Notes: a model not told the origin generated them from the letters alone. A stretch of 64,000 nt of DNA from a virus (IMGVR_UViG_3300031539_000008:1-64000); one strand, 5' to 3'. Positions 8,375-52,891 are shown, numbered from the stretch's first letter. Numbers and translations are program-made.

Positions 8375-8701
8375 ATGCCCGACCCAGAGCTGCCCCAGGA
8401 CATCGCCGTGGACAAATCCCACTGCCAGCATGAGCCACTGGAGATCTTTCGGCCCGGATCGCAAAGCCCATGGTCAGATGACCCAATGGCGCTCATCGCC
8501 CTGCTTCGCGGAGGCGGCGCCGCCGTGCTCAAGGTTCGGGTGTGCCGTCACTGCCAGGTGGTCTACTCCACCGTGGAGAATTGGCCTACGCCAACGCACG
8601 AGCTAGAGGCAGAGAACGATCGACTGCGAGAGGAGCTGGATGCGCTCAAGTCAGCGGCGCAGCAGCCGGCGGAGACCGGAGCCTCCACCGACGCGTCGTG
8701 A
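8375..8701 (+). CDS. Small hypothetical protein (CxH/CxxC, coiled coil)
   Basis: ORF 6 nt after TGCTACAAG. Confidence 0.5.
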   Translation: MPDPELPQDIAVDKSHCQHEPLEIFRPGSQSPWSDDPMALIALLRGGGAAVLKVRVCRHCQVVYSTVENWPTPTHELEAENDRLREELDALKSAAQQPAETGASTDAS

Positions 8702-9910
8702 CCTGGCCGGGTTGGGCAGCGTCACGTTCTTGGGGTCGAGCAGGCCAGCCCTCGCCTGGTACTTGATGGCCTCGTCGATCATGTGCAGGCGGTCCTCCAG
8801 TGAGAGCGCATCGAACTTGCGGTAATACTCCGCATTCACGCCCGCAGGCAGAGGCAGGTGACCAGCGCGCGCCAGCTCGATCGCCCGCGCCACCGTGGAT
8901 CGGCTGATCTTCTCCCGGCCGCTGTCGAGCCGGTCGATGACGTGGTTGATCAGGTCATCTACGTGCCACAGGTCCCTGTCGTACACGTCGATGGTGTGGC
9001 GCGCATTTGCCAGCGCCTCCTGTTGGTCGTGCCCCCAGACACCTCGCTCCATGCCTTCTTCCGATGGCTCTTTCCACTCTGCCCGATAGTCACCGTTGGG
9101 TCGCTGGTGCACCCGAATCCGTCGGCCCTTGTACTCCCACTCGGTGTCAGCGGGGTAGCCCGCGAGAAACCTGGGAGGCTTAGCCTTGGTGTCGATGGGG
9201 TTTCCTGACGCGCCGTCATTCTCCAACTGCTTTCGGCCCTTGGCCGTGAGGAGGTAGCGTGGATCCTTGCGACGCGCATCCTTGCGGATGTACCCAAGGT
9301 GCTTGGCTGAGATGATGCTCGTGCCGTTGGCCAGCCCAGTGGTCACGTAGCCCTTCTTGCTGGCGATTCTGACGGCCTTCATGGCCAGGGCATGCAAGTC
9401 TGCACCCTTCTCCTCCAGGGCCCGTGCATGAGCCTCAGCGCTCAGCGGATCCGGCTTGGATGGATTGGCCGTGTGCAGGAGCCTGGCGTCGCCCATCGCG
9501 ATGGCTCCGCTCTCGATGCTGCCTTGGACTGGGTGGTCGCTAGGCAGCACAGCGAACTGGGGCTTGGACTTGAGGCGGTAGACGTAGTGGGGGTTCTTGG
9601 TCCGCAAGGCCCGACGGTCGGCATCGCGAGTGGCGGTGGCCAGATCCTTGAAGCGGCGGAGGCCAGGATTCGGCTTGGGCGCCCGCTCCAGGGCGCGAGC
9701 GATCTGAATCGAGAACTCTGCCGCGTTGTGGAACAGCGCTTTGTCGTTGGCGTCCGCGGCATCGGCCATCGCCTGACAGGCTTCGCAGTGCGCGGCGAGC
9801 AGAGCGCTCATGCCAACGGCGGATCCCTGGCCCGCTCCGTAGAGCATCTTGGCCATCGAGAGCCGCTTGTGGGCTCGGTCGATCCGGTCGGTGCGGCGAG
9901 CGCGTGCCAT
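8651..9910 (-). CDS. NP-segmented basic protein with C-terminal tag (LRRLLRR)
   Basis: Five NP motifs separate modules; tag at terminus. Confidence 0.7.
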   Translation of the reverse strand: MARARRTDRIDRAHKRLSMAKMLYGAGQGSAVGMSALLAAHCEACQAMADAADANDKALFHNAAEFSIQIARALERAPKPNPGLRRFKDLATATRDADRRALRTKNPHYVYRLKSKPQFAVLPSDHPVQGSIESGAIAMGDARLLHTANPSKPDPLSAEAHARALEEKGADLHALAMKAVRIASKKGYVTTGLANGTSIISAKHLGYIRKDARRKDPRYLLTAKGRKQLENDGASGNPIDTKAKPPRFLAGYPADTEWEYKGRRIRVHQRPNGDYRAEWKEPSEEGMERGVWGHDQQEALANARHTIDVYDRDLWHVDDLINHVIDRLDSGREKISRSTVARAIELARAGHLPLPAGVNAEYYRKFDALSLEDRLHMIDEAIKYQARAGLLDPKNVTLPNPARSRRVGGGSGLRRLLRR

Positions 9911-10011
9911 CAGCCCTTGGCCGAGTAGGCGAGCGCGACCAGTTGGAGGGCGAGCACTGCACCGAGCCCCATGATGAGCGTGCCCATCTTGCTGTTGTTC
10001 TTGGCAGCCAT
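9910..10011 (-). CDS. Small membrane peptide (33 aa)
   Basis: MAAKNNSKMGTLIMGLGAVLALQLVALAYSAKG; stop overlaps next start (TGATG). Confidence 0.45.
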   Translation of the reverse strand: MAAKNNSKMGTLIMGLGAVLALQLVALAYSAKG

Positions 10012-10072
10012 GTCCGGAGCTTATGCGGTTTTCTCGGAATATCCAAGGAACACGCCGGTCATGCAGTGCGGG

Positions 10073-10468
10073 CTACAACCGCATAATCCGGCGAAGCGCA
10101 TTGGGATTAGCCTTCTTTTTTGGGTTTCGCTTGGCCACTCTGAGTGCAGGGTGTGACACCACCCCAGTCCAGCCCATGCGCTCGTCCTCGGGAATCACGT
10201 CTCCAATGGCAGACTCAAGACGGTCGCGCAGGGCAATCACCGTATTGGCCTTCCGCTCACCCATGTATCCGTTCTCCCACTGTGCTCGCGCGTGCTCCAT
10301 CACGGCACCGTACAGGCTCGCCATGGCGTTCCGCGATCCAATCAGACGCGTACCTTCGATACGCGTCTCGGGGTGCGTCTCCTGCACACCTTCCAGGTGT
10401 CCCTCAAGCAGATGGTGGACCATCGCCTTGGTGATCGGAACCCGGACCTCCTTCGCATCGCTCGCCAT
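10073..10468 (-). CDS. Hypothetical protein with C-terminal tag (NPNALRRIMRL)
   Basis: Tag; upstream TGGTAGCAT box. Confidence 0.7.
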   Translation of the reverse strand: MASDAKEVRVPITKAMVHHLLEGHLEGVQETHPETRIEGTRLIGSRNAMASLYGAVMEHARAQWENGYMGERKANTVIALRDRLESAIGDVIPEDERMGWTGVVSHPALRVAKRNPKKKANPNALRRIMRL

Positions 10469-10514
10469 GCCCGCATGCTACCACGCGTCCATGCTGGACA
10501 ACATCACCGCAGGA

Positions 10515-11066
10515 CTACGTGTCCTGCGTGATGCCCAGGTCAGCCAGCTCCTGTGGCGTGAGCGGGTTGCCAGATACGGTCACCCGAGGCTTGGGTTCAA
10601 TTTGACCGGCTCGCTTGAAGCGCTCGGCGATGTCTTCCCAATCCTTCGCCGACACGGTCTTGCCAGCCTCCGTGATGTTCGACATGAGAAACCGATAGGC
10701 CCAATCCAGCACGTCGTTCATCTTGGAGATCTGGGCGCTCTCGCGGGACTGCATCATCGCGCTGATGCACGCGGCGAAAACTTGACCCTGGACGAGTGCA
10801 TCCCATGGATTCGGCGTGAGCACCGCCTTGCCACCACACTCGTCGCAAACGCCGGTGACATTCTCGTAGATGGTCCGCTTTTTCGTCCCTGAGCAGATGG
10901 CGCACGTGCCGTAGGAGGCCTGCCCTTGCTCATCGCAGTTATCGCAATCAACCTCGGTCGCAACCTGCTTGGTTCGTACCCCGGAATCACAGGCCCAACA
11001 TTCGGTCTCGAAAAGGCGGATGGCGTACTCGACATGGCCGTCGAGCATTTCCTCGGTCGTGGGCAT
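10515..11066 (-). CDS. DnaJ-type Cys-rich zinc-finger protein
   Basis: Four CxxC motifs, several in CxxCxGx context. Confidence 0.6.
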   Translation of the reverse strand: MPTTEEMLDGHVEYAIRLFETECWACDSGVRTKQVATEVDCDNCDEQGQASYGTCAICSGTKKRTIYENVTGVCDECGGKAVLTPNPWDALVQGQVFAACISAMMQSRESAQISKMNDVLDWAYRFLMSNITEAGKTVSAKDWEDIAERFKRAGQIEPKPRVTVSGNPLTPQELADLGITQDT

Positions 11067-11256
11067 CAGCTAGCCTTGCGCGTGGTTTTCTACGCGCACT
11101 TGTCCGTGGCCGCAAGCCGGGCACACGGGCGCCAGCCACTGCCACTGCATGGAGCAGCGGTCGCAGCAATAGACCACCACGGGCCACATGGGCCTACTGG
11201 TGGGGGCTGGCGGAGTGTGTTTCACCCTTTCAGCCTGCATCAGAAAAGATCCGGCG

Positions 11257-12627
11257 TCAAATTCGCATCAAGCGGTGGAATGCACTTTTGCGTCTTTTGG
11301 TCGCTTTTGTTTCAGGATTCGGCGTTTTGCTACCAGGAGCGTCCAGGTCCGCCCGGCGGAACAGGTCGTCGAACTTGCCGTCCAGGAACACGGCGTGACC
11401 TGGATCGGTGATGACCGTTATCTCGTGGTCCTCGCGTACAACCTGTCCGATGTTTCCGTAGTGAACGTCCGCCAGCACGATGCCGTGCTCCAGGTAGAAG
11501 CCGAATGTCCCTCCCACTGCGTCCGACCCGTAGCTGTGCTCCATCAACTCCGCCGAGATTCGGCACGCATCAAGAAGTGTGGACAGTCGGTGGATGCCCT
11601 TGAGGTGGCCGAGCATGTCTGCGCCTCGGTGCCACCGATTCACGAAGTCCACGGCGTCCTCGTAGTGGTCCAGCTTCTGAGCGTACTGGACGTTGTGCCG
11701 AAACTGCTCCCGACCCTTGCGCTTGCACCAATCACGGATTCGGCCAGCGGCTTCCTGCCACACGATCAGGTGCTTCTGAAACTCCTTCTCTGCTCTCCCC
11801 AGATACTGGGCCTCAGTGGTCCGCTTGCCCTGGACCCACTTGTCCGCACGCTCGCGGTCCCTGGCTGTAAGCAGGTCCCCCGTGCGCGTGGCCTCCTCGC
11901 GCCAAATCGCGTAAAGGGGGCGCCGTCGGTGCGTGCCAGGCAGGCGCATGATGTCGAAGTAGCGGACGATTCCCTCGGGTAGCTCCCCCAGTGAGAGCGC
12001 CGCCACGATGAATCTAGCCTCGGAGTCGTCCGAGGTGATCTTCATCACCACCCCTGGCGTGTGCGTGCGAAAGACCACGCCGTAGTGCCCCTCTCCAAGC
12101 TCCTGGTAGGGGTGGTCTAGGTAGCCCGGCTTCGGCGTGTAGTCCAGCGGCATCCACTTGGCCCCGACCTCCTTCACCATGGCCTCCCAGTTCTTCGCGA
12201 TGGCTTTGTCGGACCACGGTGGGTTGGGCGTCTGAGATTCACGGCGACCATTTGGCCAGTCGGTCACGCGCACGCCCGCCTTGGTGGTGACTCGATCCAT
12301 GGGCCCCGGTCCCCGGACAAAGGGGCGCTCCATGTCGCCCACCCGTCCGAGCTTCTCCTGGCCGGGCTGCTGCACGTAAGACGACGCGCCGCCGCGCCAG
12401 TCCCACTCGCCACCGTGCTCCTTGAGCTTGGCGCGGCGGTCGAGCTTCCGGCTGATGCTGTATCCCACCTTGGCGAGCTTGGCGTCGATGACATTACGGT
12501 CGGGCCTGTTCTCCCATTGGGGCGAGACCTGGAACTCGATCCGCCGGAACGGGTGATTCGGGTGCTTGACTGCGCCGTCCTCGGTCTCGTAGAGGCTCAG
12601 GCGCCACCAGTATTTCCGGCCAGCCAC
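11257..12627 (-). CDS. Protein-kinase-like fold protein with C-terminal tag (FHRLMRI)
   Basis: LGEGHYGVV Gly loop, VMKIT Lys, E helix, LADVHYGNI catalytic loop, TDPG; start uncertain (12627 or 12753). Confidence 0.75.
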   Translation of the reverse strand: MAGRKYWWRLSLYETEDGAVKHPNHPFRRIEFQVSPQWENRPDRNVIDAKLAKVGYSISRKLDRRAKLKEHGGEWDWRGGASSYVQQPGQEKLGRVGDMERPFVRGPGPMDRVTTKAGVRVTDWPNGRRESQTPNPPWSDKAIAKNWEAMVKEVGAKWMPLDYTPKPGYLDHPYQELGEGHYGVVFRTHTPGVVMKITSDDSEARFIVAALSLGELPEGIVRYFDIMRLPGTHRRRPLYAIWREEATRTGDLLTARDRERADKWVQGKRTTEAQYLGRAEKEFQKHLIVWQEAAGRIRDWCKRKGREQFRHNVQYAQKLDHYEDAVDFVNRWHRGADMLGHLKGIHRLSTLLDACRISAELMEHSYGSDAVGGTFGFYLEHGIVLADVHYGNIGQVVREDHEITVITDPGHAVFLDGKFDDLFRRADLDAPGSKTPNPETKATKRRKSAFHRLMRI

Positions 12628-12632
12628 GGCCC

Positions 12633-12642
12633 ATGCTACCAT
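12633..12642. promoter_or_regulatory. Bidirectional extended -10 element
   Basis: TGCTACCAT 6 nt before ATG 12649 (+); TGGTAGCAT 5 nt before GTG 12627 (-). Confidence 0.55.
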
Positions 12643-12648
12643 CGCTCC

Positions 12649-12825
12649 ATGAGCAAGCGGTTGGAGAAGAAACTCCAGTTCGTGGCCCGCGCTTTCGTCT
12701 GGGAGAACCGCTTTCAGAAGACACGCCAGGTCGTCAGACTCGTGCGTGGCCACGTCAACACGGCCAAGGACGCGAAGCAGGCTGTGAGCTTCTGGGCCCG
12801 GCTCCTGCTGCCCAAGACAGACTAG
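12649..12825 (+). CDS. Small basic hypothetical protein
   Basis: ATG 6 nt after TGCTACCAT; fills gap between flanking genes. Confidence 0.4.
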   Translation: MSKRLEKKLQFVARAFVWENRFQKTRQVVRLVRGHVNTAKDAKQAVSFWARLLLPKTD

Positions 12826-13949
12826 CTGAGCCCGAGTCGCCTGCGGAGAGCTGAGCGGGCTCGCTTGTGCGGGTTCTGCCCCGGTCCTCCGCCCGCCCGC
12901 TTCTTGGCCTCCTCCAGCGCCTTGATGGCCACGTCCATCTTCTTGCTCTCTTCGGCCAGCAGCTCCGCCTCCGCCTTGAGGTCCTCCATCGCCTCCTTTT
13001 GCTCCGGAGGGGACATCGTCATCAGCTTCTCGGGCGTGACGCTGACATCGGCACCGAGGCGCTCGTGGATGTCCTTTTGTAGCTTGGTGCGAGCCTTGGT
13101 CAGCGCGTCAGCCACGAGTTGGCGGTCGGCGAACCCGCCAACTACCTCCATGATCTTCGCAGCCGACATCTTCTCCATGTCTGCCAGGCGGACCAGCTCG
13201 CGGTTCTTCTCGGACAAGCTGTCCATGGCCGCCGCGACTGCGCGAGCGATACGGCGGGCACCGAGGCTGTACCCTGCCGTGCCCGTGGCGATTCCAGGAC
13301 TAATGCCAGCGATCTCCTCTTGAATCTTCGCGGTCGGCCTGACCGACTTGGCAAAACGGCCAAGGCGACGCGACCACTGCTTGCAGTTGTTGGTCACAAT
13401 CCTGTACAGCCAGGTGTAGAACTTCGATTTCCCTTGGAAGGAGCTGATCTTTTCGAGCGCGGTGAGGAAGGCGTTTTGCGTCAGATCCTTGGCATTCTGC
13501 TGGTCACCGATGGACCATCCTTTTCGTCCTGCACGCACGCAGTTGAGGGCGATTTGGTAGACCCTGTCGTAGTAGAGGGAGTAGAGCGCGCCAAATGCCT
13601 CCTGGTTGCCTGCCTGAGTTTGACTGACCAGCTCGACGATGGCCTCTTCATCCTCGCGGTCTGGCACTTTGGCCTTGGGATTCGTCCAGAGAATCGGGAC
13701 CGCCAGCATCTCCCGATCCGATCCCATGTCAGCGAGCACTCTGGACTGAAGCTGCGACGCCAATCCCACCGCCTCGTCGAGTAGGTGCACGTCTCCAGAA
13801 TACTGAGCATGCTCAGCAGCCGCGACCGCGTGCTCCAGGGCGTGAAGGCCAGCAGCCGGCGCGCGTAGGCGACTGAGCTTTCTGGCCGACTTGAGGTAGC
13901 TCTTGGCGACGTGCGCATGCACGGGCTGCGTCGGGTTGGTCCGAGCCAT
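12822..13949 (-). CDS. ECF-type sigma-70 factor with N-terminal helical module and C-terminal tag
   Basis: GNQEAFGALY..YYDRVY, DLTQNAF, SFQGKSKFYTWLYRIVTN (region 2); LSEKNRELV...MSAAKI (region 4); ends QNPHKRARSALRRRLGLS. Confidence 0.85.
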   Translation of the reverse strand: MARTNPTQPVHAHVAKSYLKSARKLSRLRAPAAGLHALEHAVAAAEHAQYSGDVHLLDEAVGLASQLQSRVLADMGSDREMLAVPILWTNPKAKVPDREDEEAIVELVSQTQAGNQEAFGALYSLYYDRVYQIALNCVRAGRKGWSIGDQQNAKDLTQNAFLTALEKISSFQGKSKFYTWLYRIVTNNCKQWSRRLGRFAKSVRPTAKIQEEIAGISPGIATGTAGYSLGARRIARAVAAAMDSLSEKNRELVRLADMEKMSAAKIMEVVGGFADRQLVADALTKARTKLQKDIHERLGADVSVTPEKLMTMSPPEQKEAMEDLKAEAELLAEESKKMDVAIKALEEAKKRAGGGPGQNPHKRARSALRRRLGLS

Positions 13950-13956
13950 CGGCGCC

Positions 13957-13966
13957 ATGGTAGCAT
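13957..13966. promoter_or_regulatory. Bidirectional extended -10 element
   Basis: TGGTAGCAT 7 nt before GTG 13974 (+); TGCTACCAT 7 nt before ATG 13949 (-). Confidence 0.6.
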
Positions 13967-13973
13967 CCACAAC

Positions 13974-14981
13974 GTGTTCCTGACGACAGACCAGCCGGAT
14001 GGGGCCCCTTCCGAGACCTACGACTTCGTGGGCAAGTACCGCGGGGGGCACTTCTACATCAAGCTAAAGTCCCCGCCGAACGCGACAACGGCGAGCTATC
14101 GCCTGGACTACAGCAAGGCGCGCAGGGGGAAATGGGGGAGCCACCTCGACTTCCACCTGTTCGCAGAGACCCTCGCACTGGCCATGCGCGAAATGAAGTG
14201 CAGGGCCGATTGGGAGCTGTGGCAGGACGAGTGGGTTGCTTCGGACAGTCTCATCCACCGGGTGGCCAAGAGCAACATCGCGTGGCACATCCACCAAGGA
14301 TACTCCATGGGCCCGTGGGGGTTGGTGGGCATGGCGGAGGAGGCTGACAAATGGTTCAAGCACCTGGAGGTGACCCGCGGCGCGAGCGTGGTCCAGGAGT
14401 GGTGGCGCGCCCTGACATTGGACCAAAAGAGCGCTTTTCTGCGGGACGTTTGGATTTGCGAGGGGAAGGAAGTCGAGGGGCCCGCCGAGCCGTCCCCGCC
14501 ACCGAAAAGGTCCAAGCCGGATTCCGGAAAAAAATCGAAGGCCAAGACGATGCGCCATCGTGTCCGCGTGAAGGCGTCCGACACCCCGATTGTCGACCGC
14601 CTATTCGGCCACTGCAAGAAATGCCGTGTCTGCCTGGCCTACGATGTGAGCCACGGCTGCTGCACGGTCTGCGGACGACAGCTCACCCCCAACCCCGAAG
14701 ATTGGTACAAGGAGTTCATCGGGGACTGGATTCTTTCCCTCTACCCCTGGGGAGGTGCATGGAGATTCGAGCTTTACAACGAGAAAATGGACCAGGAACT
14801 CACCGGCAGCGAGCCCACGCGCTCGCGTGCTCTGGCGGCTGCCCGCCGCATCGTGATGCGCTGGCGGGCGAAGGAGAATCCGCAGCGAAAGAAGGTGGTC
14901 AAGTCACGGAGGTCCCAGACGAAACGCAAGAGGACCGAGAAGGACCGCGCGGATGTCTTCCGAAGGATGATGAAGCTGTGA
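13974..14981 (+). CDS. Multi-module protein (Zn ribbon) with C-terminal tag (VFRRMMKL)
   Basis: CKKC..C/CCTVC; NP motifs; tag. Confidence 0.65.
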   Translation: MFLTTDQPDGAPSETYDFVGKYRGGHFYIKLKSPPNATTASYRLDYSKARRGKWGSHLDFHLFAETLALAMREMKCRADWELWQDEWVASDSLIHRVAKSNIAWHIHQGYSMGPWGLVGMAEEADKWFKHLEVTRGASVVQEWWRALTLDQKSAFLRDVWICEGKEVEGPAEPSPPPKRSKPDSGKKSKAKTMRHRVRVKASDTPIVDRLFGHCKKCRVCLAYDVSHGCCTVCGRQLTPNPEDWYKEFIGDWILSLYPWGGAWRFELYNEKMDQELTGSEPTRSRALAAARRIVMRWRAKENPQRKKVVKSRRSQTKRKRTEKDRADVFRRMMKL

Positions 14982-15535
14982 AGCTGTTTCACATCACCTA
15001 CGAGCGGAATCTGCCCGGCATCGCGCAGGATGGCCTTGTTCCCGGCCACACCTCGCTCTACCCATCCGGACTACACCACCACCTGCGCGGAGCGATCTTC
15101 CTGACCAGCCCAGATGGGGTGTTCTTCTGGTACACGAACTCCGAGGAGGCGATGATTCACGTCTCGGACGATCCGCAGGCAGATGGCTACACGCCAGTGG
15201 TGCTGCGCGTGCCCGAGCCAGAGCATGGCTGCGCGTACGACGAGTTGGGGACCGATGACGCTAACGCGCCTGCGTTTCGCTGTGTCACGTCCATCCCGGC
15301 CAGCAAGATCGAGCTGTGGGATGGTGAGCACTGGCTCCCGATCTCGCAGTACCAGCGTCTCGATACGTCATCGTCCTACGACGAGGACGGCTATTTCTCC
15401 GGGGACTATCCACTGCTGCCGGAGTGGAGGGATATGCAGAAGAAGGCGACGGCCAAACGGGACCAACATGCCAAGCGGTCATCTCCACGTCGAGTGAATC
15501 GCTCGGCAGCCCTGCGCAGAATGATGAAGCTGTGA
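14978..15535 (+). CDS. ADP-ribosyltransferase-like (H-x-T...IFLT) protein with C-terminal tag (ALRRMMKL)
   Basis: LFHITYERNLPGIAQDGLVPG, IFLT, VVLRV, IPASKI pattern of Tpt1/KptA-like ART folds. Confidence 0.6.
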   Translation: MKLFHITYERNLPGIAQDGLVPGHTSLYPSGLHHHLRGAIFLTSPDGVFFWYTNSEEAMIHVSDDPQADGYTPVVLRVPEPEHGCAYDELGTDDANAPAFRCVTSIPASKIELWDGEHWLPISQYQRLDTSSSYDEDGYFSGDYPLLPEWRDMQKKATAKRDQHAKRSSPRRVNRSAALRRMMKL

Positions 15536-16080: not shown

Positions 16081-16083
16081 ACC

Positions 16084-43946: not shown

Positions 43947-43949
43947 GAC

Positions 43950-44228: not shown

Positions 44229-44260
44229 GCCCTTGGTCTCTTTCTCTCGTGCAGACTGTC

Positions 44261-44874: not shown

Positions 44875-44880
44875 GTTTGG

Positions 44881-45324
44881 TTATCGGAACACGTTTTTCA
44901 CTTTACACATGCCCTTGCAGACCTTGAGCTTGTACTCAGCTCCGCCACCATGCTTGGAGATGCAGTCCGCCTCGCAGCGGTTGGATCCGCCGCCACGGGG
45001 AGACATGCCACCGCGAGCGCTGACGGCCTTCAGTGTCCCTCGCGTGCGACGACGCCCCATGCCCAACGTCTTGGGTGCCTGGGTCGAGACCGCGCCACGG
45101 TAGTAGTCGTCACCACGCTCTCCGTCGACCTGGAAGTGGTTGCCGAACACGCGGTTGGCGTAGGAATTGCCATCCGTATTCACCGTGGCTCGAAAGTGAC
45201 CTGGCTGAACCTGCTGGAGGTCCACCGAGAACTCGCTTCCGAACACGCGTTGGGCGTAGGAAGGTGCGCCCAGTCCGCCGATGCCAGCTCCCAGATCTGT
45301 GTCGCTCATTGATGGGTTGCGCAT
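44881..45324 (-). CDS. NPSM-leader protein with internal repeat and Cys-rich tail
   Basis: SYA.RVFG..F.VD twice; GMG; 4-Cys tail. Confidence 0.65.
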   Translation of the reverse strand: MRNPSMSDTDLGAGIGGLGAPSYAQRVFGSEFSVDLQQVQPGHFRATVNTDGNSYANRVFGNHFQVDGERGDDYYRGAVSTQAPKTLGMGRRRTRGTLKAVSARGGMSPRGGGSNRCEADCISKHGGGAEYKLKVCKGMCKVKNVFR

Positions 45325-45342
45325 GTCCTTGCTCTCCTTCTC

Positions 45343-45636
45343 TCAGCGATTCGTATGGTACGCGAGCCTACAGACTCCCTGGCAGCAGACCCACAGGCCC
45401 TTGTGGTCAACCCTTGCCTTACAGCCGCGCGGGATCCTGGGTCGACTCGCTCGCTTGGTCGCTCCCACGCCACGGCGACATCCAGAGGACACCGGGGTTC
45501 CGACGGGTAGCATGGTCTGCGCGGCGCATCCACCGATGCCGGGAAACCACAGCCCCATCATCGCTGGCTGTATGGCCGCTAGGTTCTCCAGCGCCATGGT
45601 CTCGCTGTCAGCTTCGGCTCTGCACGGGTTGAACAT
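45343..45636 (-). CDS. Small GVG-motif Cys-rich protein
   Basis: MFNPC...RRGVGA...WVCCQGVC. Confidence 0.55.
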   Translation of the reverse strand: MFNPCRAEADSETMALENLAAIQPAMMGLWFPGIGGCAAQTMLPVGTPVSSGCRRGVGATKRASRPRIPRGCKARVDHKGLWVCCQGVCRLAYHTNR

Positions 45637-46067
45637 CAGACGATCCGCACGATGGTTGCGCCGCGCACGGTCGGCACCTCGGTCGGGACAACTTGATTCT
45701 GGTCGGAGATGTCGACCTGGACCGCGCCAGGCGCAGCGGCCTCCAGGATGAAGCGATGGATGTACGGCGCGCCCGGCATGGCCTCCTCGGGCTCCTCGAC
45801 CTCCTCGGTGACGATCAGCGTGGGGTCACCCTCGACGGCTTCCGTGAAGATCGTCCACTCGTAGGCCGTGCCGCTGGCATGAGGCAGCTCGATGGTCAGC
45901 ACGTCTCCGAGGTTCAGCTCAACCTCGGTGGGCAGCTCGGACAGCTCGGTGATGAGTACCTGCTCCGGAGGCTGCCCGCCGTTTCCGTCCTTGACTTTGT
46001 CGCCCTTGCTCTTGGCGAGCAGAATGACGGCTCCGACGATGAGAACTGGTACAAGTGGAAATGGCAT
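45636..46067 (-). CDS. Membrane-anchored chagasin/I42-like Ig-fold protein
   Basis: N-terminal anchor; IELPHASGTAYEW and PGAP..HRF.L.A..PG match the chagasin loop pattern. Confidence 0.55.
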   Translation of the reverse strand: MPFPLVPVLIVGAVILLAKSKGDKVKDGNGGQPPEQVLITELSELPTEVELNLGDVLTIELPHASGTAYEWTIFTEAVEGDPTLIVTEEVEEPEEAMPGAPYIHRFILEAAAPGAVQVDISDQNQVVPTEVPTVRGATIVRIV

Positions 46068-46083
46068 CTGTGTCCTCGGTCTT

Positions 46084-46458
46084 TCACCCGCAGATCGGGT
46101 ACCAGCTCGTGCCGCTTTGATGAGCGACGAGCGCGTAGTTTGCTTTGACTTCCAGGACCGTCCCTGGGTAGCTCAGTCCGCCGCAGAAGATCGTTCCGTT
46201 GGTGATGTCGACGCAGCAGCTCGCGTAGGAGCCGTAGTGTCGGGGGTAGTAGCCGGCCCACCACGCCCACCAGTTGCCCCACCATCCGCTGCCCCCGCTG
46301 CCCCCGCTGCCACCTCGGCCGCGCCAAGGGTGGCCTGGGCGCCAACCTCCGCCGCCGCCGCCACCACCTCGACCTCGGCGGGCACGTCCTGCACGTCCTC
46401 CGCCGCGCTGTCCTACGCCGCGACGACTTCGATGAATGGTGAGTTTGACTTCTCCCAC
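46084..46458 (-). CDS. Gly/Arg/Trp-rich small protein with GVG motif
   Basis: RRGVGQ; RGG-rich; WWGNWWAWW. Confidence 0.55.
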   Translation of the reverse strand: MGEVKLTIHRSRRGVGQRGGGRAGRARRGRGGGGGGGGWRPGHPWRGRGGSGGSGGSGWWGNWWAWWAGYYPRHYGSYASCCVDITNGTIFCGGLSYPGTVLEVKANYALVAHQSGTSWYPICG

Positions 46459-46463
46459 GTGAG

Positions 46464-46787
46464 CTACCTGTCGTAGATCGAGCGAAATTGGTCTCTGACC
46501 AACTGATTGACGAGCTGCTTCTTGGTCACGCGACCGTACCGCTTGAGCACAGGCTTTTTTTTTGCCTTCTTGCGGCGGCGCTTGGGGTTGTGTGACTCGA
46601 TGGTGGCCAGCTTCTTGTAGTAGGCCTTGTCTTCGGTCAGGTGATCCATGGCGATCTCGACGGCCACCATGAAGTCGCTGGTGTGCTCCGTCTCAACCAG
46701 CGCTCCGCGAGCGAGTTCCACGGCGTTGAAGTCAGAGGGGGACTTCCCCACTGACAGACCGCCGGGTATGCGCTCGCGCCACGTCAC
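46464..46787 (-). CDS. DUF5661-like protein with NP-basic tail
   Basis: G..VE.EHT......EIAMDHL.ED..YYKKL. Confidence 0.7.
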   Translation of the reverse strand: MTWRERIPGGLSVGKSPSDFNAVELARGALVETEHTSDFMVAVEIAMDHLTEDKAYYKKLATIESHNPKRRRKKAKKKPVLKRYGRVTKKQLVNQLVRDQFRSIYDR

Positions 46788-47467
46788 GGAATCCGTAGCT
46801 TTCGCTTCCTCTTCGGAGTCTTCTTCTTCGCCACCTTCTTCTTGGCCTTCTTCTTGGCCTTCTTCTTTTTTCCTCCGCGTGGAACCTGTGTCCACTCGCC
46901 GGATGCACGCATCTCCACGTCCGATGGAGCGTACCGCTCGGTCCACTCGCCAGAGGAGATCATTTCGCGTGACTTCTTGTGCGCCGCCTTGTAGCCGGCG
47001 TCTGGATTGCTGGCCGTGCCAGAGAGCAGGACCGACTCGGTATGCGGGTCGATCAGGCCCCACTGGATCTGACTCTTGGCGCCGGGGTTGGGCACCCAGA
47101 CATATGCCAGCTCGGACGGGTTCTTGGTGAACCGCGTGAGACTGCCAGGCGTGCCCATCACGATCCCCTTCCAGTAACCGAGCAACGCATGCGAGCGCTT
47201 GTCTCCCATGCCCTTGGGCCCACAGCTCATGCGTGGGCTGGCCGCGTATCCGCGAGCCATCGCGGCGTTGGCCCCGGCCGAGCACGAGGTCAGATCGTAC
47301 TTGCTGGCCCCCATTTTTCCCTTCGCGCTCCGGCTGCGAATCGGGACGTAGTAGGCACCGCGCGCCTCGCTCCAGCGGATGCGCGCCTGTCCTCCGGCGA
47401 CGCCGCGGCCCTCCTTGCGAACTGCGGCAAGCGCCTTGGCGAAACTGACTTTCTGCTTTTTGGCCAT
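46784..47467 (-). CDS. Basic NP-motif protein
   Basis: KKKAKKKAKKK tail; NP and GMG motifs. Confidence 0.65.
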   Translation of the reverse strand: MAKKQKVSFAKALAAVRKEGRGVAGGQARIRWSEARGAYYVPIRSRSAKGKMGASKYDLTSCSAGANAAMARGYAASPRMSCGPKGMGDKRSHALLGYWKGIVMGTPGSLTRFTKNPSELAYVWVPNPGAKSQIQWGLIDPHTESVLLSGTASNPDAGYKAAHKKSREMISSGEWTERYAPSDVEMRASGEWTQVPRGGKKKKAKKKAKKKVAKKKTPKRKRKLRIP

Positions 47468-47475
47468 GACTGATC

Positions 47476-48840
47476 CTAGATCTTGCTGAACTTGCGCAGA
47501 ATCGTCGCCTTCTCACGGGCACTCATCTGCTTGTTCGCCTTGGGTCCACTCGGCTTGACCGAGCGGGGGGTTTTGGCCGCGACAGCGCGAGCCTTGCGCG
47601 ACTTCTTGCTCTTGAACTGCGCAAACAGCCCCTCGTGTCCCCGAATAGGCTCCAGGGGGTTGAGCTGTAGGTAACCACGCGAGGAGAGCTGCATGCGGCG
47701 ACCCGAGGCCGTTGCGCCACGTCCCGCGCCGGAGCCTGGACCGTCGCCGGAGAACCGGCTCATGTTGCGACCGGCCACAGAGAGGCGATGAATCGCCTGC
47801 TCCACCGTCATCTGCGGAGGCACGCCGGCGAACCCTGGGCGCGGCACGTTGCTCGGCCACGGCGCGACGCGCGTGGGCGCTCGCTTGGCCACCTTGCGCT
47901 TCGTGGCCTTGCGCTTGGCGACCTTCCGCTTTCCGGTCGTCTTCCGCTTTCCGGTCGTCTTCCGCTTGGCCACCTTCTTCTTGGCGGTCTTGCGCTTGGC
48001 GACCTTCTTCTTCGTGGCCTTCTTCTTCGTGGCCTTCTTCTTGGCTGGCTTGCGCTTGGCTGTGCTCAGCTTCTTGGAGCACAACTCCAGCCGCATGGAG
48101 CAGCCTTTCAGGGAGTCCTTGAGAGCCTCCTCCTGCTTCTTGGTCAGGTCTCCCCGATGCTTGGCCTTTTTCAGGCGCGTCTCCAGGGACTTGATGTGTG
48201 CCTTGAGCGAGGCGATTTCCTTGCTGTCCTTGCGCTTGGCGGCGGCGATGCGCTTGGTCTCCTGGCGTGCCGCATCGAATCCCTCCATCAGGTCGGACAC
48301 CACGTCGGCTGAAACCATTTCTTCGGTCAACTTGGCCAGCGCAGCCTTGCCCTTGGTGATTTTGGCAATCTTGGCCTTGGACGGAATCGAACCCTGGGCC
48401 ATTCCCCATTGTTTCTTCGTCAGACCGTGCTTGCGTACCTTGCTTGGCGTACCAGACGGGCTGGCGGGGCCGGCGGCAATCCCGACAGCTTTCTTCTTCT
48501 TCGACCGCTTCTTCGTGGCCTTCTTCTTGGCCGGCTTGCTCTTGGTCGCTTTCTTCTTCGCAGTTTTCGCCACCTTTTTCTTGGCCACCTTTTTCTTGGC
48601 CTTTTTCTTGGCTGGCTTTTTCTTCGCCACCTTCTTCTTCTTGGTCGCCTTCTTCTTGGTCGCCTTCTTCTTGGTCGCCTTCTTCTTGGTCGCCTTCTTC
48701 TTGGTCGCCTTCTTCTTGGTCGCCTTCTTCTTCTTGGCGGCGTTGCGCTTTGGCGACTTGCGCTTCGCGGCACGCTTCTTCGCCTTCTTGGCGCGCTTCT
48801 TCTTTCGAGGATTGACGACGTTGACGGTGTAGGTGGCCAT
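47476..48840 (-). CDS. Histone H1-like Lys/Ala-rich DNA-condensing protein with C-terminal tag (ILRKFSKI)
   Basis: KKATK/KKVAK repeats, central coiled coil. Confidence 0.8.
   Translation of the reverse strand: MATYTVNVVNPRKKKRAKKAKKRAAKRKSPKRNAAKKKKATKKKATKKKATKKKATKKKATKKKATKKKKVAKKKPAKKKAKKKVAKKKVAKTAKKKATKSKPAKKKATKKRSKKKKAVGIAAGPASPSGTPSKVRKHGLTKKQWGMAQGSIPSKAKIAKITKGKAALAKLTEEMVSADVVSDLMEGFDAARQETKRIAAAKRKDSKEIASLKAHIKSLETRLKKAKHRGDLTKKQEEALKDSLKGCSMRLELCSKKLSTAKRKPAKKKATKKKATKKKVAKRKTAKKKVAKRKTTGKRKTTGKRKVAKRKATKRKVAKRAPTRVAPWPSNVPRPGFAGVPPQMTVEQAIHRLSVAGRNMSRFSGDGPGSGAGRGATASGRRMQLSSRGYLQLNPLEPIRGHEGLFAQFKSKKSRKARAVAAKTPRSVKPSGPKANKQMSAREKATILRKFSKI
48641..48730. repeat. 15-bp tandem repeat x6 (KKATK)
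   Basis: ttggtcgccttcttc repeated six times. Confidence 0.95.
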
Positions 48841-49007
48841 GGTGGTGTTCTCCTGAGTTTGGACGCCCTTCGCGGGCAGGCGAGGTGGGCGTCAGCGCCC
48901 TCGCGGAAGTTTCGTGATGCTGAGAGTACCTGCTAACAGGGAAAACGAAAAGAGAACCAACCCGACGTGCACGGCAGCGGTGGCAAGAGTGGGTTTCTTC
49001 GGTCCGT

Positions 49008-49181
49008 TCATCGCCCCTTGCCGAAGTAGAACGCGGTGCCGACGAGTGCAAGCATCGCGGCCCACAACGGGACCTTCCTGCCGTTCTCATCGTCGCCGGC
49101 ACCCACGCCACGGCGTCCGCGAGTACGGACGATACGACGAGGGAGACGCGGACGACGTGTCTTGTACTTGGGTCGTCTCAT
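49008..49181 (-). CDS. Small basic-GVG-TM protein
   Basis: RRGVGAGD...VPLWAAML TM; paralog of 49178-49345. Confidence 0.6.
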   Translation of the reverse strand: MRRPKYKTRRPRLPRRIVRTRGRRGVGAGDDENGRKVPLWAAMLALVGTAFYFGKGR

Positions 49182-49345
49182 TTTACCGCCTTGATGATGC
49201 CGTAGGATGCGAGTCCTCCGAGGATCAGTGCGGCCCACACGGGTACGCACAGATCGGTGGTGTCACCGTTGGCCCCCATGCCGCGACGACCGCGAGACCT
49301 CGCCTTCTTCTTGCGCTTGTTGGTACGTGGACTGAACTTCGCCAT
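49178..49345 (-). CDS. Small basic-GMG-TM protein
   Basis: RRGMGANGD...VPVWAALI TM. Confidence 0.6.
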   Translation of the reverse strand: MAKFSPRTNKRKKKARSRGRRGMGANGDTTDLCVPVWAALILGGLASYGIIKAVK

Positions 49346-49356
49346 CTTCTTCTCCT

Positions 49357-50058
49357 TCAGATCCTCATCAGTCTGCGCAGCGTTTTCCGCTGCTCGGGTT
49401 TCAGCTTTTTCTTCGGCATGCGTATTCCGCCGCCGACCGATTCGCCCGCGCGTTGGGCGAGCCAGTTGCAAAGGCCGCCGGGGGATTCGACATCTGGACG
49501 TGCCTCCATGATGGCGAGACAGGCGCTCATACTGCCGCCTGGAATGTCGACAGGATTCCCCTCGTAGGGTCCGACGCCGTATCTGGCGGTAATCTTCTGA
49601 GCCACACGAAGCAGGCTCCGAGCTTCCGTGACTCCGTTTTGTCCAAGTTTGCGGGCTGGCCCAGGGTCGTCTCCAGAGTGTTCCGCTTCGCCCACGGCCA
49701 CCGCTGCGTATTTGATGGTGTCCAGGGCTCCGTTGAAAGCCACTGTGAAATCTTCCACCCGCTGAGCCTTCTCGAAAGCCTTGGCGGCGAGACGCATCGC
49801 CTTGCGGTACCGATCCGCGTGTTCACTGCGTCCTGGGTTGGCTAGCTGCGGATCGAACCCGTACCTCCGCATGATCGAGAGGTTGTTCTTCACCGCCCGC
49901 CAGTCGCTCGGCGTCTGCGACATGAACACCGAGCCCTTCCCGCCCGGGGACGATAGCTTCCAATGACCAGCCTTGCGCAGCGTGGCTGTCCATCCCTGCG
50001 CCTTGGCCTGCTCGATCACCTCGCGCATGCGCCTGGAAAGGTCTGACTTGCGGGACAT
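49357..50058 (-). CDS. HicA-like N-domain + helical module + C-terminal tag (LRRLMRI)
   Basis: GW......GHWKL.SP......TPSDWR; NP boundaries. Confidence 0.65.
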   Translation of the reverse strand: MSRKSDLSRRMREVIEQAKAQGWTATLRKAGHWKLSSPGGKGSVFMSQTPSDWRAVKNNLSIMRRYGFDPQLANPGRSEHADRYRKAMRLAAKAFEKAQRVEDFTVAFNGALDTIKYAAVAVGEAEHSGDDPGPARKLGQNGVTEARSLLRVAQKITARYGVGPYEGNPVDIPGGSMSACLAIMEARPDVESPGGLCNWLAQRAGESVGGGIRMPKKKLKPEQRKTLRRLMRI

Positions 50059-50066
50059 GGATGGGG

Positions 50067-50402
50067 CTACCGAGCGAAGACCTCGGCGCGTGTGTGAAGT
50101 CGGCCTTCATCGAACTCGATGTGGTCGCGTTCAACCTGATCTACCAACTCGGCCGGGCAATACCTGCGGAACGGAAGCATCTCCCGTGCCGCGTGCTCTG
50201 CGACGAGGTCTGGCGGAAAGCCAAGGTTCCGCAGCATCCGATGCTCACGGCGCAACTTGTGTTGTTGAGCGTTGGGCAGATACGGAAACAGCGAATCCTC
50301 CTCAAATGCGAAGTGGCATTCCAAACAGCACGCCACATCCATGCGGCAACTATTCATCTTGTCTTTGCAGGCTCCGCAACATGGTGGCTTGACTGGCATC
50401 AC
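50067..50402 (-). CDS. Hemerythrin-like (HHE) small protein
   Basis: HFAFEEDSLFP, EH, HAARE, DH. Confidence 0.5.
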   Translation of the reverse strand: MMPVKPPCCGACKDKMNSCRMDVACCLECHFAFEEDSLFPYLPNAQQHKLRREHRMLRNLGFPPDLVAEHAAREMLPFRRYCPAELVDQVERDHIEFDEGRLHTRAEVFAR

Positions 50403-51127
50403 GTACCTCTCATGGCCTTCTCCAGGATACCCCTGGTTTTCTTGCTACTCGTGCGATTCTTCCTGGATTTCGTCCTCTTCTTCGTCGGGTTCGGGATGAG
50501 ACCCTCTGCCGCCAGTGAGGTAAAGTTACGTGGAGAGACCACCACGTGATCCAACACCGGGATTCCAGTCATCCTGCCGACCTTGACCATGCGTTGTGTC
50601 AGATCGATGTCAGCCTCGCTTGGCGAGGAGTCGCCAGTGGGATGGTTGTGTGCGATGACCACGCTGTGAGCCTGCCGACGGATCGCCTCCCGAAACAACT
50701 CTCTGGGGTGCACCTCCACCGCCGACAGGCTGCCAATGGCGATTCCGAGCACGTCGATCACTTGCTGGCGTGCGTCGAGCAACACGACGACGAAATACTC
50801 CTGCGGCTTCTTGCCGATGACCCTACGCACGAGTTCTGCTACCTCGGATGGCTGCCTGACAGTCCCCGCGCGGTCCTGACAGGCCGCGTCACACAAGCCA
50901 GCAACCGCAAATACAGCAATCACCTTCTTGGCCTGGGCAGTGGGAACCCCAAGATGGGTGAGCGCACTCATGCTCGCGTCGGAGAGTCCACGCCCGTCGG
51001 GGAAGTTCTCGGCCAGGATGGCTGCGCTTTTCTTGGTCAGCCCCAACTCACGCAGGCGGTCCACGAGCTTGCCTCGCTCCCGAATCTCCAGGAGTAGATC
51101 GTTGTGTATCGGTCGACCTCTCGGCAT
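50399..51127 (-). CDS. radC: RadC-like JAB-domain protein with C-terminal tag (ILEKAMRGT)
   Basis: QEYF...LD, VHPRELFREAI, AHNHPTGD..PS.AD, LDHVV. Confidence 0.9.
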   Translation of the reverse strand: MPRGRPIHNDLLLEIRERGKLVDRLRELGLTKKSAAILAENFPDGRGLSDASMSALTHLGVPTAQAKKVIAVFAVAGLCDAACQDRAGTVRQPSEVAELVRRVIGKKPQEYFVVVLLDARQQVIDVLGIAIGSLSAVEVHPRELFREAIRRQAHSVVIAHNHPTGDSSPSEADIDLTQRMVKVGRMTGIPVLDHVVVSPRNFTSLAAEGLIPNPTKKRTKSRKNRTSSKKTRGILEKAMRGT

Positions 51128-51540
51128 CAGGTTCCTCGCATCGCTTTACGCAGGATCGCGCGGGCGTCTGGATTATTCTTCGCATTTTTCTTGGCGGTCT
51201 TTTTGGCCTTACTGGGCTCTTGGGCGATACGCCCTTCCGCCAGCTCGATCATGCTATCCTTCTCACCGGCCCGCTCATCCAGACGATCCTGGTCGCGCGC
51301 GGCCGTGTACGCCTGGATGTAGAAGCTGTACTCGACCTTGTAGATGTGGCCGTTGACCTTCGTGTAGAGGCCGGGGATGACTCGGTCGTTCAGGCTGTCC
51401 CACAGCTCATGCCACTGGTAGTCGTCTGGGCCGTAGTCTGGCAGCGCCTGCTGTTGCTTGCGGGGGTCTGGGATTCTGGCGCTGCGTCGGTCGAACGACG
51501 ACATCTCCCGATACGGCGATGTGACAACCGGAGCCATCAC
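51127..51540 (-). CDS. Hypothetical protein with C-terminal tag (NPDARAILRKAMRGT)
   Basis: Tag; coupled ORF. Confidence 0.7.
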   Translation of the reverse strand: MMAPVVTSPYREMSSFDRRSARIPDPRKQQQALPDYGPDDYQWHELWDSLNDRVIPGLYTKVNGHIYKVEYSFYIQAYTAARDQDRLDERAGEKDSMIELAEGRIAQEPSKAKKTAKKNAKNNPDARAILRKAMRGT

Positions 51541-52331
51541 GTCCCTCGCATCGCCTTGCGCAAGATCGTCTTGGCGTCGGGGTTCTTCTTGGCCACCTTC
51601 TTCTTCGCCTTCTTCTTCGCTTCTTTCCTCGCTGGCTTCCCCCAGTTGAGTTCATCCACCAGCGAGATGGCCTTGTCGAAAGCGTCGGCACCACGAAAAG
51701 TCTCGTAGATCTTCGTCTTGTCGCGCACCGCGTATACGCCATGCGGGAGCACGTCAATCCGTACCATCGGGGATGCAGCCTTGGCCCTGGGGTTCTTCAC
51801 CCTCTTCTTGGCGCGCTTGCGCGAGGCTTTGCTCGCGGGGTTGCTGCGCAGTTTCAGCATGTCCTCCACCTCGGAGGATATGGAGCTGGCGCCGTCCATG
51901 ATGGAGTAATCGTCGGCGTGGTGTCCCTCGTTCCAAGCGGCGTGCGCATCTTCCAGGGCTAGGATGGCCAGGACTTTGCGATGTGACCCGTCTGTGGTTT
52001 CACGGGCCTTTTCAAGCGTCTTTTCAGCTTGCTTGAGGTGAGCCTTCGCCAGCCTGGCATGGGTCTTCTTGGCGGGGTTCGATGTCTTTTTGCGCGGGTT
52101 CTCGTACCCCTCGCCCTCCACGCCCCCGGCCTCGCCCCACCCAGACTCGCCGCCCGGCCACTCGTCCGAGAGCTTGGCCCCGAGCCTGGATGCCTTGCGG
52201 TCGCCGCCCTTGGGCTCGAATCCTCCACCCCGTCGCCACTCCCAGTACGCCTCCAGGTGTTCGCCGGCGGCGTGGTAGTCCTTGCGCTTGAGGGCGCTGG
52301 TGGCCATGTCGAGTGCTGCCTGCGGGTCCAT
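51537..52331 (-). CDS. NP-segmented protein with C-terminal tag (NPDAKTILRKAMRGT)
   Basis: Five NP motifs; shared helical module. Confidence 0.75.
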   Translation of the reverse strand: MDPQAALDMATSALKRKDYHAAGEHLEAYWEWRRGGGFEPKGGDRKASRLGAKLSDEWPGGESGWGEAGGVEGEGYENPRKKTSNPAKKTHARLAKAHLKQAEKTLEKARETTDGSHRKVLAILALEDAHAAWNEGHHADDYSIMDGASSISSEVEDMLKLRSNPASKASRKRAKKRVKNPRAKAASPMVRIDVLPHGVYAVRDKTKIYETFRGADAFDKAISLVDELNWGKPARKEAKKKAKKKVAKKNPDAKTILRKAMRGT

Positions 52332-52891
52332 CAGTACACCAGTCCTCTCTCCGTCACGGTTAGCCGACCGCCGCTGATGGCGATGGCCTTGGGCGGGCTT
52401 CCAGGCGACATCGCGATGCGCACGTTCTTGCCCAGGGTGTGGATGTAGTCGTCCGTCATTCCGTCCGACTTCCATTTGGAGCTGCGGTACACGATGTGAA
52501 CCGCGCGACCGTACGGCTTGAGCTGGTAGTCTTGGAGCTTGAGTTCGCCCATCTGCACGGGGTCACGCGCCGCCCATCGACGAAATAGCTTGGCCGACTT
52601 CTCCGCGCCGGCCGCCTTGAACAGCTCCTGGTCCGGACCGAGATGGCCGACCCATCGCACGTGCTTCCCAGGGAAGATCAGCAACGTCTTCAGCGTCGGG
52701 CTCCAATAGAGGTTGGGGCCCTCCCCCGTGAACTTGTGGACCTCTTCCTGCCCGTCGCTGTCGCGCTCGACCTTGATCTCCAGGGCAGTGCCAAGCAGTG
52801 CCACGTCGCCTGGATTCGGCAGGCGTGACGGCTTAGGGCCGGGGTTCCCCGCAAGTAGCAGGCACGGTAGGCAGGGGTTTTGGCGTGGCAT
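52331..52891 (-). CDS. Hypothetical protein with N-terminal NP repeats
   Basis: QNP, GNP, PNP, then globular domain. Confidence 0.65.
   Translation of the reverse strand: MPRQNPCLPCLLLAGNPGPKPSRLPNPGDVALLGTALEIKVERDSDGQEEVHKFTGEGPNLYWSPTLKTLLIFPGKHVRWVGHLGPDQELFKAAGAEKSAKLFRRWAARDPVQMGELKLQDYQLKPYGRAVHIVYRSSKWKSDGMTDDYIHTLGKNVRIAMSPGSPPKAIAISGGRLTVTERGLVY

Follow-up and report, generated by a model that had tools for sequence, protein, structure and literature searches.

Asn-Pro dipeptides at the module joints of a tagged protein class in an uncultured virus

An uncultured virus, represented in IMG/VR by a linear and unclassified record of 102,604 bp (IMGVR_UViG_3300031539_000008), encodes a class of proteins that share a short C-terminal tag. 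In these proteins the dipeptide Asn-Pro (NP) stands at nearly every joint between leader, exchangeable modules and tag, and we read it as a positively selected short linear motif located in flexible linkers. The window referred to below is the first 64 kb of this record (64,000 nucleotides). Gene calling with a codon-usage model trained on the contig gave 174 genes, with start codons that are approximate. The tag is basic, amphipathic and short, with endings such as ..ILRKAMRGT or ..LRRxMR[LI]; the 15 proteins that carry it were picked by eye from their C-terminal tails and are encoded in two clusters, 8651-15535 and 39944-56921 (Table 1). We treat them as virion cargo, an assumption drawn from their clustering with structural-looking genes and with a hyperbasic protein.

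NP excess and its placement at module joints

The 15 tagged proteins hold 37 NP dipeptides, where 6.3 are expected from their own composition (z ~12), making NP their top over-represented dipeptide; 0/5000 within-protein shuffles exceeded 16 NP. Put differently, Pro comes after one third of all Asn residues in the tagged proteins. A first-pass annotation of this DNA had counted NP in three of them, and its counts are exact: 8 in the protein encoded at 42405-43946 (0.98 expected; 0/20000 shuffles), 5 in that at 8651-9910 (0.73 expected; 7/20000 shuffles) and 5 in that at 51537-52331 (0.29 expected; 0/20000 shuffles). The comparison with untagged proteins that it had proposed also comes out in its favor, as the 155 untagged proteins contain 48 NP versus 38.5 expected (1.25-fold), and the membrane-anchored structural-looking block is not enriched (14 versus 11.1).

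Other dipeptides ending in Pro do not follow this pattern. Observed-to-expected ratios for SP, TP and DP (Ser-, Thr- and Asp-Pro) are 0.9-1.1 in the tagged proteins and 0.7-1.2 at the widest, so generic helix-cap or linker composition is insufficient to account for the NP excess. The codons at the sites of the tagged set differ, with 22 AAC, 15 AAT and all four Pro codons in use, which places selection at the level of the protein and not of the DNA. A DNA-level motif is ruled out by this mixture of Asn and Pro codons together with the absence of a DNA repeat at the edges of a module insert in the 8651-9910 protein. Across the whole contig, AAT makes up 36-41% of Asn codons before a Pro codon and 17% elsewhere (Fisher p ~7e-6). 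This AAT excess is found in tagged and untagged genes alike and is a codon-pair bias avoiding AAC-CCN.

The position of NP at boundaries is supported mainly by comparison within five protein families, in which modules are gained, lost or free-standing exactly at NP. In the family of the 42405-43946 protein, N244-P245 is nearly invariant right after the core (15 aligned sequences), and relatives carry differing extra modules inserted between NP sites, each again flanked by NP. The core also exists free, as a basic protein of 97-146 residues in low-G+C contigs, and the free forms end in ..GSFGPRK-stop, exactly where the fused forms go on with NP. Among 28 distinct fused core proteins, NP lies within 25 residues past the core in 23 and within 12 residues in 15. 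The 8651-9910 family shows an 88-residue insert (150-236) bracketed by NP149 and NP237, and two homologues have one NP at that place; NP81 is invariant in this family, and the last NP is kept with a shift of one or two residues. Conservation in the 51537-52331 family covers the N-terminal 77 residues and ends in an invariant N78-P79 (4/4 proteins), downstream of which the proteins are unrelated. In the 56220-56921 family, NP follows the core at variable distance in 5/5 aligned members and in 13/14 motif-bearing representatives, and the two halves are found as separate genes (the core alone in P0046; the downstream module alone in P0052, P0055 and P0056). In the 39944-42379 family, NP directly precedes the helix-turn-helix (HTH) domain in 4/4 orthologues with leaders of 6 to 46 aa. 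The earlier claim that NP divides the tagged proteins into swappable modules is therefore well supported, since homology starts or stops at NP in all five families.

Recognizable domains allowed us to check individual placements made by the first-pass annotation. For the RadC-like protein (50399-51127), the RadC Pfam domain spans residues 91-210 and NP follows at 213, 3 residues past the domain end, as had been described. The sigma domain is likewise bracketed as claimed, with ..WT-NP at 97 and ..GQ-NP at 366 around Sigma70_r2, which lies at 129-205 of the 12822-13970 protein, ~30 residues after NP97. For the kinase-like protein (11257-12753), the bracketing TP-NP at 177 and 479 is present, but the kinase call itself comes from motifs seen by eye and has no Pfam kinase match. 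The labels 'HicA-like' and 'DUF5661-like' found no Pfam match. Over the proteins generally, a crude composition-change index is modestly higher at NP than elsewhere (p ~0.01-0.02).

Table 1. Proteins of the tagged set and their NP sites, given as residue number with codon coordinates in parentheses
Coordinates	Strand	Length (aa)	Protein	NP sites	Position relative to modules and tag
8651-9910	-	419	tagged	81 (9665-9670), 106 (9590-9595), 149 (9461-9466), 237 (9197-9202), 400 (8708-8713)	
10073-10468	-	131	tagged	two (10121-10126, 10103-10108)	six residues apart, just before tag
11257-12753	-	498	kinase-like, tagged, no Pfam match	TP-NP at 177 (12220-12225) and 479 (11314-11319)	
12822-13970	-	382	sigma-70 region 2	12 (13932-13937), 97 (13677-13682), 366 (12870-12875)	
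13974-14981	+	335	tagged	240, 302	
14978-15535	+	185	tagged	zero	counter-example: tag does not require NP
39944-42379	-	811	tagged HTH protein	43 (42248-42253), 759 (40100-40105)	NP43 before HTH; NP759 before C-terminal segment
42405-43946	-	513	tagged	5 (43929-43934), 70 (43734-43739), 148 (43500-43505), 244 (43212-43217), 265 (43149-43154), 274 (43122-43127), 458 (42570-42575), 499 (42447-42452)	core ~160-243 between NP148 and NP244; Gly-rich hydrophobic module between NP458 and NP499; 13-aa tag after NP499
47476-48840	-	454	hyperbasic KKKAT-repeat protein, tag-like end	10, 394	NP10 after conserved 9-aa leader
49357-50058	-	233	tagged	74, 168	
50399-51127	-	242	RadC-like JAB protein	213 (50486-50491)	then basic linker and tag
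51127-51537	-	136	tagged	single NP	14 residues from end, directly before tag
51537-52331	-	264	tagged	78 (52095-52100), 85 (52074-52079), 164 (51837-51842), 180 (51789-51794), 250 (51579-51584)	
55262-56218	-	318	tagged	118	
56220-56921	-	233	tagged	147 (56478-56483)	after conserved core 34-140

Recurrence, motif context and genomic setting

The contig has no close relative in phage GenBank records or IMG/VR, whether by DNA or by the 42405-43946 protein, and no DNA-level match among 50,697 phage records; a search with a back-translated tag pattern gave one match, judged to be due to chance. Homologues of the 42405-43946 protein were found in metagenomes only. A scan of metagenome contigs by means of an alignment of these homologues yielded 52 loci (cited here as L and a number), and the longest related contigs were covered in part, through stretches around the related loci. 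The high-G+C loci L009, L010, L012, L015/L016 and L022 hold protein clusters with the same or a variant tag, variants in relatives being ..AILRNAMRGT, ..FRRMMRL and ..AIMRSFMRL. In the four non-redundant loci among them (L009/L010/L012/L016), tagged proteins contain 42 NP versus 6.2 expected, and other proteins 27 versus 15.6. In a second and more distant lineage, most proteins are without a terminal tag, and NP is 5-7-fold over expectation in the whole cluster (L036, 52 versus 9.2; L042, 20 versus 2.9; L035, 11 versus 1.9; L047, 20 versus 3.9). A profile search of a 1.8-billion-protein library added 33 diverse representatives of the 56220-56921 family, with 73 NP versus 13 expected. Because the excess is repeated in independent relatives, NP enrichment is a trait of the lineage and not an accident of a single contig.

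The context of the motif was drawn from 94 NP sites in this virus and in related loci. At positions -1 and -2, Lys is 2.7-2.8-fold enriched; acidic residues are nearly absent upstream (none at -3, one at -2), a hydrophobic residue occupies -1 at 5/94 sites, and small or charged residues predominate after the Pro. NP often comes in pairs, spaced by 3-10 residues. An NP lies 10-33 residues from the end in 9/15 tagged proteins, and likewise in relatives, with 14 as the commonest distance, corresponding to the 13-residue tag. Orthologues keep NP while shifting it by 1-5 residues relative to both flanks. For example in the L009 orthologue of the 49357-50058 protein, NP168 is kept and the first NP has moved a few residues; NP10 and NP394 of the 47476-48840 protein both persist in its L009 orthologue and have counterparts at corresponding positions in the L016 homologue. 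Taken together, these are the features of a short linear motif of accessible linkers, selected for its presence and not for its exact position, and not those of a fixed structural element.

AlphaFold models of the 42405-43946 and 8651-9910 proteins are of low confidence (mean predicted local distance difference test, pLDDT, of 50 and 65), the conserved helical core of the 42405-43946 protein being the only confidently modeled part. The mapping of NP onto disorder and domain boundaries, which the first-pass annotation had suggested as a check, agrees with it at 9/13 modeled sites, which fall in low-confidence linkers or at their edges (4/5 in the 8651-9910 model and 5/8 in the 42405-43946 model), and not at the remaining four, of which three are helix starts and one is a turn within a domain. 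Fold searches with both models were uninformative because of this low confidence, and profile searches against PDB sequences gave no match.

Several observations on the tag and on NP in relatives stand apart from these counts. The protein at 34426-34845 (+), in the early/replication module, has a tag-like ending (..REWRTRRMRL) though its gene lies outside the tagged clusters; the same ending occurs at L012:5059-5454. In the second lineage, one protein (L036:2-1252 and neighbors, L047:3576-4809) carries a ~40-residue repeat, ..ALRLG-NP-SPEN.., and several others end in ..MARRARG-NP-.. plus a short extension, so that NP comes after a tag-like helix and not before it. An internal copy of the tag before every NP, by which each cut would lay bare a new tag, was considered and rejected: a position matrix built from true tags gave no significant excess in the lineage of this virus, and in the second lineage the figures are 6% versus 2.7% (p=0.17), which leaves the impression gained by eye unsupported.

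The core of the 42405-43946 protein (ITRPGKLGG..GYRSCLGS..YGGPGSFGPRK) matches no Pfam family and has no PDB relative in a profile search against PDB sequences. Its free form is encoded at L003:9915-10325 and L006:8329-8757, and the low-G+C contigs with a free core include an IMG/VR giant-virus bin; on another of these contigs, a major capsid gene of the nucleocytoplasmic large DNA virus (NCLDV) type (PF04451/PF16903) lies ~2.5 kb away. The presence of the core in a tagged protein of a bacterial virus and in giant-virus contigs indicates a basic protein domain common to both groups. The hyperbasic 47476-48840 protein, with ~40% Lys plus Arg and the highest codon-usage score of the genome, has orthologues in L009, L015/L016, L036 and L047. 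Judging from its sequence, it looks like a histone-H1-like DNA-condensing protein, which would be unusual for a bacterial virus.

The contig has a G+C content of 63% and is ~71% complete by CheckV estimate, and matches to Pfam and PHROGs are scarce among its proteins. Those genes that are recognizable point to a bacterial host. They include an M15 cell-wall peptidase, Dam methylase, tyrosine integrase, DnaB, HNH, YqaJ and RecT, as well as the sigma-70 region-2 protein and an ATPase common to N4-like and other phages. An open reading frame with collagen triple-helix repeats (59822-60781, -; Pfam E 8e-9) was missed by the codon model and may encode a fiber.

Candidate roles of the NP joint

There are several possible explanations for a dipeptide fixed at module joints. 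The one that we rank first, with a probability of about 0.4, is that NP is a maturation-cleavage signal. NP would be read by an endopeptidase, either a viral one with its gene in the ~29% of the genome that is missing or one supplied by the host. After assembly, this enzyme would cleave the precursors at NP or beside it and would thereby free leaders, modules and, where NP lies 10-30 residues from the end, the terminal tag. Proteolytic processing is placed first because a short fixed motif at joints, including joints that arose by insertion or fusion, follows the logic of a polyprotein, and because the exclusion of acidic and hydrophobic residues upstream resembles the subsite preference of an enzyme. 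The targeting peptides of T4 and of giant phages, which prohead proteases remove, offer the closest analogy and are the only precedents for a terminal peptide shared by several unrelated virion proteins and joined through a short motif. Finally, packaged polyvalent proteins carrying domains of these kinds are believed to undergo processing (PMC5512222).

A number of observations weigh against this reading. The first-pass annotation recognized no protease in the window, which Pfam and family scans confirm, and the search that it recommended in the rest of the 102.6-kb contig found none either. Peptidase_C1, S78 and ClpP are absent from the whole contig in family searches, Pfam and PHROGs searches of ~90 contig proteins gave no maturation protease (only the M15 cell-wall peptidase and a chagasin-like inhibitor domain), and no zincin HExxH protein with credible context was found. 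With the contig ~71% complete, the absence of a protease is weak evidence. Bonds adjoining Pro are poor substrates for most endopeptidases. In several small untagged proteins, NP stands 2-7 residues past the start Met, where cutting makes little sense, and 6/15 tagged proteins have no NP near the tag (in five, NP is 52-200 residues from the end; one has none). Three NPs of the 42405-43946 model are simply the residue before a predicted helix, and NP106 of the 8651-9910 protein, which is not conserved, sits in a turn inside a folded domain. What the first-pass annotation had proposed is thus upheld as far as NP-delimited swappable modules are concerned, whereas the release of these modules from the tag by a protease remains an inference.

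Proteins within the tagged set, and some encoded near it, were also considered with respect to proteolysis. The tagged proteins have no peptidase domain by Pfam and no credible HExxH, and the RadC/JAB domain is taken to be a nucleic-acid enzyme rather than a peptidase by the authors of PMC5512222. In a membrane-anchored protein at 45636-46067 (-), Pfam recognizes a chagasin-like inhibitor domain, I42 (E 4e-8, above cut-off); the contig has no papain-like protease (PF00112). The conserved neighbor gene 52331-52804 gave no lead to a protease in Pfam or the ESM Atlas. Its long open reading frame form (52331-52891, -) would have an additional leader of 29 residues that contains three NPs, one in NPGP; the conserved part starts at 52804, and homologues lie beside tagged clusters in L016 and L036. 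In L016, a membrane-anchored alpha/beta hydrolase (L016:7696-8415; Abhydrolase_2, E 1.6e-10, with a GHSQG nucleophile elbow) is encoded between the 52331-52804 homologue and a run of tagged genes. It was rejected as a candidate protease, having no homologue in the present contig. The pattern G[MVL]G[AQN], tried as another cleavage motif, is not enriched (11 versus 7.2 +/- 2.7) and is absent from the tagged proteins.

A serious competitor, although one to which we give clearly less weight than to cleavage, is that NP is an uncleaved structural delimiter. An Asx-Pro turn would act as helix N-cap or hinge, with the modules and the tag helix folding and docking separately while the chain stays intact. 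The modeled helices 266-273, 275-297 and 500-510 (the tag) of the 42405-43946 protein start at the Pro of NP265, NP274 and NP499, respectively, and NP in the 39944-42379 family stands directly before the first HTH helix even with a 6-residue leader. Several sites continue with D, E or S, as is seen at helix N-termini, and the N-terminal M-x-NP-S of small proteins fits capping better than cleavage. Capping would, however, be served equally well by Ser-, Thr- and Asp-Pro, and only Asn-Pro is enriched. Helix caps account for 3/13 modeled NPs and for none in the 8651-9910 protein, NP moves relative to flanking conserved elements in orthologues, and the depletion of hydrophobics at -1 is the opposite of the hydrophobic staple of capping boxes. 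The helix N-capping box (S/T/D/N-P) as a known motif does not fit, with 3/13 modeled NPs as caps and with SP, TP and DP not enriched.

The first-pass annotation had named a binding motif as its alternative. We consider it rather unlikely that NP, together with the basic residues before it, serves for docking or modification, being recognized by a partner that does not cut and offering multivalent contacts for loading. The partner could be an adaptor for packaging, a protein of the capsid or the membrane, or a modifier such as the TPR-glycosyltransferase or the methyltransferase encoded at 58109-59814. The shifting positions, the duplicates and the excluded flanking residues are all behavior of a linear motif, the NP excess is limited to one protein class, and a GT2+TPR protein and a methyltransferase are encoded within the same gene block. 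Docking, on the other hand, gives no reason for a motif at every module joint or at the point where free versions of a domain end, and the hyperbasic DNA-binding-like protein has only two NPs in its 454 residues. The region 58109-59814 (-) itself encodes GT2-plus-TPR (weak Pfam matches) and a class I methyltransferase in a structural-looking block, which are possible modifiers of virion components.

Self-cleavage without an enzyme appears improbable. The Asn side chain would attack its own carbonyl to give a succinimide and a chain break, slowly or when triggered in the particle. Asn-Pro cannot deamidate by the backbone route, hence cleavage is its characteristic spontaneous reaction, and such a mechanism would account both for the sole selection of Asn-Pro and for the missing protease. 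We see a correspondingly slim chance that NP is a protease-free 'tear here' code, breaking in the particle or after delivery and perhaps faster in DNA-rich basic surroundings. Uncatalyzed Asn-Pro cleavage is very slow, which counts against self-cleavage, and no flanking catalytic residue is shared by the NP sites. PMC8582265 deals with non-enzymatic cleavage C-terminal to Asn, and the virions of noda-, tetra-, picorna- and reoviruses show self-cleavage at Asn, as does FlhB/YscU at Asn/Pro-Thr-His (PMC3207474). The Asn lyases that are known depend on a particular fold surrounding the Asn (PMC3207474), whereas the sites described here lie in diverse and mostly disordered basic linkers.

Least probable of all, by a small step, is that NP is a passive relic, either a functionless remnant of a basic linker-plus-tag cassette spread by recombination or a compositional by-product: the last NP is commonest 14 from the end in a recurring, homologous-looking unit (..KK-NP-x-A-x-x-I-L-R-K-A-M-R-G-T), and K-rich linkers are low-complexity DNA that could favor illegitimate recombination, but site codons differ, the 8651-9910 insert has no DNA repeat, NP is kept in orthologues at 35-60% identity with otherwise diverged linkers, and composition-preserving shuffles never come near the observed count.

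If NP is a processing signal, it would represent a new cleavage specificity with a simple grammar, leader-NP-module-NP-...-NP-tag. It would also show how uncultured large bacterial viruses load and release effectors, among them a sigma factor, a kinase-like enzyme, RadC and DNA-binding modules. Module borders become readable from sequence alone in proteins without database matches, and two joint residues plus the 13-residue tag would make a small kit with which foreign proteins could be loaded into particles. Even if the proteins stay uncut, it calls for explanation that, in more than one lineage, a single dipeptide is fixed at nearly all domain joints of a protein class.

Comparison with known systems

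A literature search found no description of an Asn-Pro junction code, and the systems closest to it agree in some features and differ in others. The 2A 'StopGo' peptides (..D-x-E-x-NPG/P) likewise place an NP-containing motif between modules of one reading frame. They need the full NPGP, an upstream context and a eukaryotic ribosome, whereas here the host is bacterial, NPGP is present at a handful of sites and the consensus D(V/I)ExNPGP is absent. The sortase B signal (NPxTN / NPKTG), which calls for NP-[QK]-[TS]-[NGS] with a hydrophobic segment and a basic tail behind it, was rejected, as the residues after NP are diverse and a hydrophobic segment follows NP only in the 42405-43946 family.

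The internal proteins of T4 have capsid-targeting sequences that are removed by the prohead protease gp21, and giant phages (phiKZ, SPN3US gp245) process head or ejection propeptides. As in these phages, unrelated proteins here have a common short terminal peptide, and a short degenerate motif forms the joint in many proteins. In T4 and the giant phages, an N-terminal peptide is cut off at L/I-x-E or S/A/G-x-E by a protease whose gene has been identified, and mass spectrometry has demonstrated the cleavage. The tagged proteins differ in having a C-terminal peptide and an Asn-Pro motif that occurs also between internal modules, and searches of the contig found no protease. Adenovirus, poxvirus and African swine fever virus offer a further likeness, in basic DNA-associated core proteins with short motifs, which in those viruses are cut after assembly; in adenovirus, a released C-terminal precursor peptide has its own function. 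Their motifs are Gly-based ((M/I/L)xGx-G, A-G-x, G-G-x) and their cysteine proteases are known, whereas in the present virus, with its bacterial host, none was found.

Asparagine peptide lyases of families N6 (FlhB/YscU) and N7 (reovirus mu1, Asn42) have an Asn as the scissile residue, as the NP sites would, and in N6 the next residue is Pro (PMC3207474). The viral Asn lyase families cleave inside assembled particles (PMC3207474). Both N6 and N7 use a single site in one conserved fold, compared with the ~100 sites found here in unrelated and mostly disordered contexts; Pfam shows no homology to YscU/FlhB or mu1 around the Asn, and the NPTH motif is absent from the NP sites.

The polyvalent proteins of phages and conjugative elements, which are packaged multi-domain proteins with kinase, RadC and other domains, are believed to undergo proteolytic processing (Iyer et al. 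2017, PMC5512222). The tagged proteins are like them in being modular and quickly shuffled, in their kinase-, RadC- and HTH-like effector domains and in having genes beside virion genes, and for the polyvalent proteins too it is believed that delivery along with the DNA is accompanied by processing. Unrelated effector domains in variable architectures, a defining trait of polyvalent proteins, are present here as sigma-70 region 2, HTH and RadC, with modules swapped among proteins. Polyvalent proteins are giant polypeptides of 2-15 domains, often with an embedded metallopeptidase, and a junction dipeptide or terminal tag common to them has not been described. The tagged proteins are of 130-810 aa with 1-4 modules and no embedded peptidase, and are set apart by their uniform NP joint and tag.

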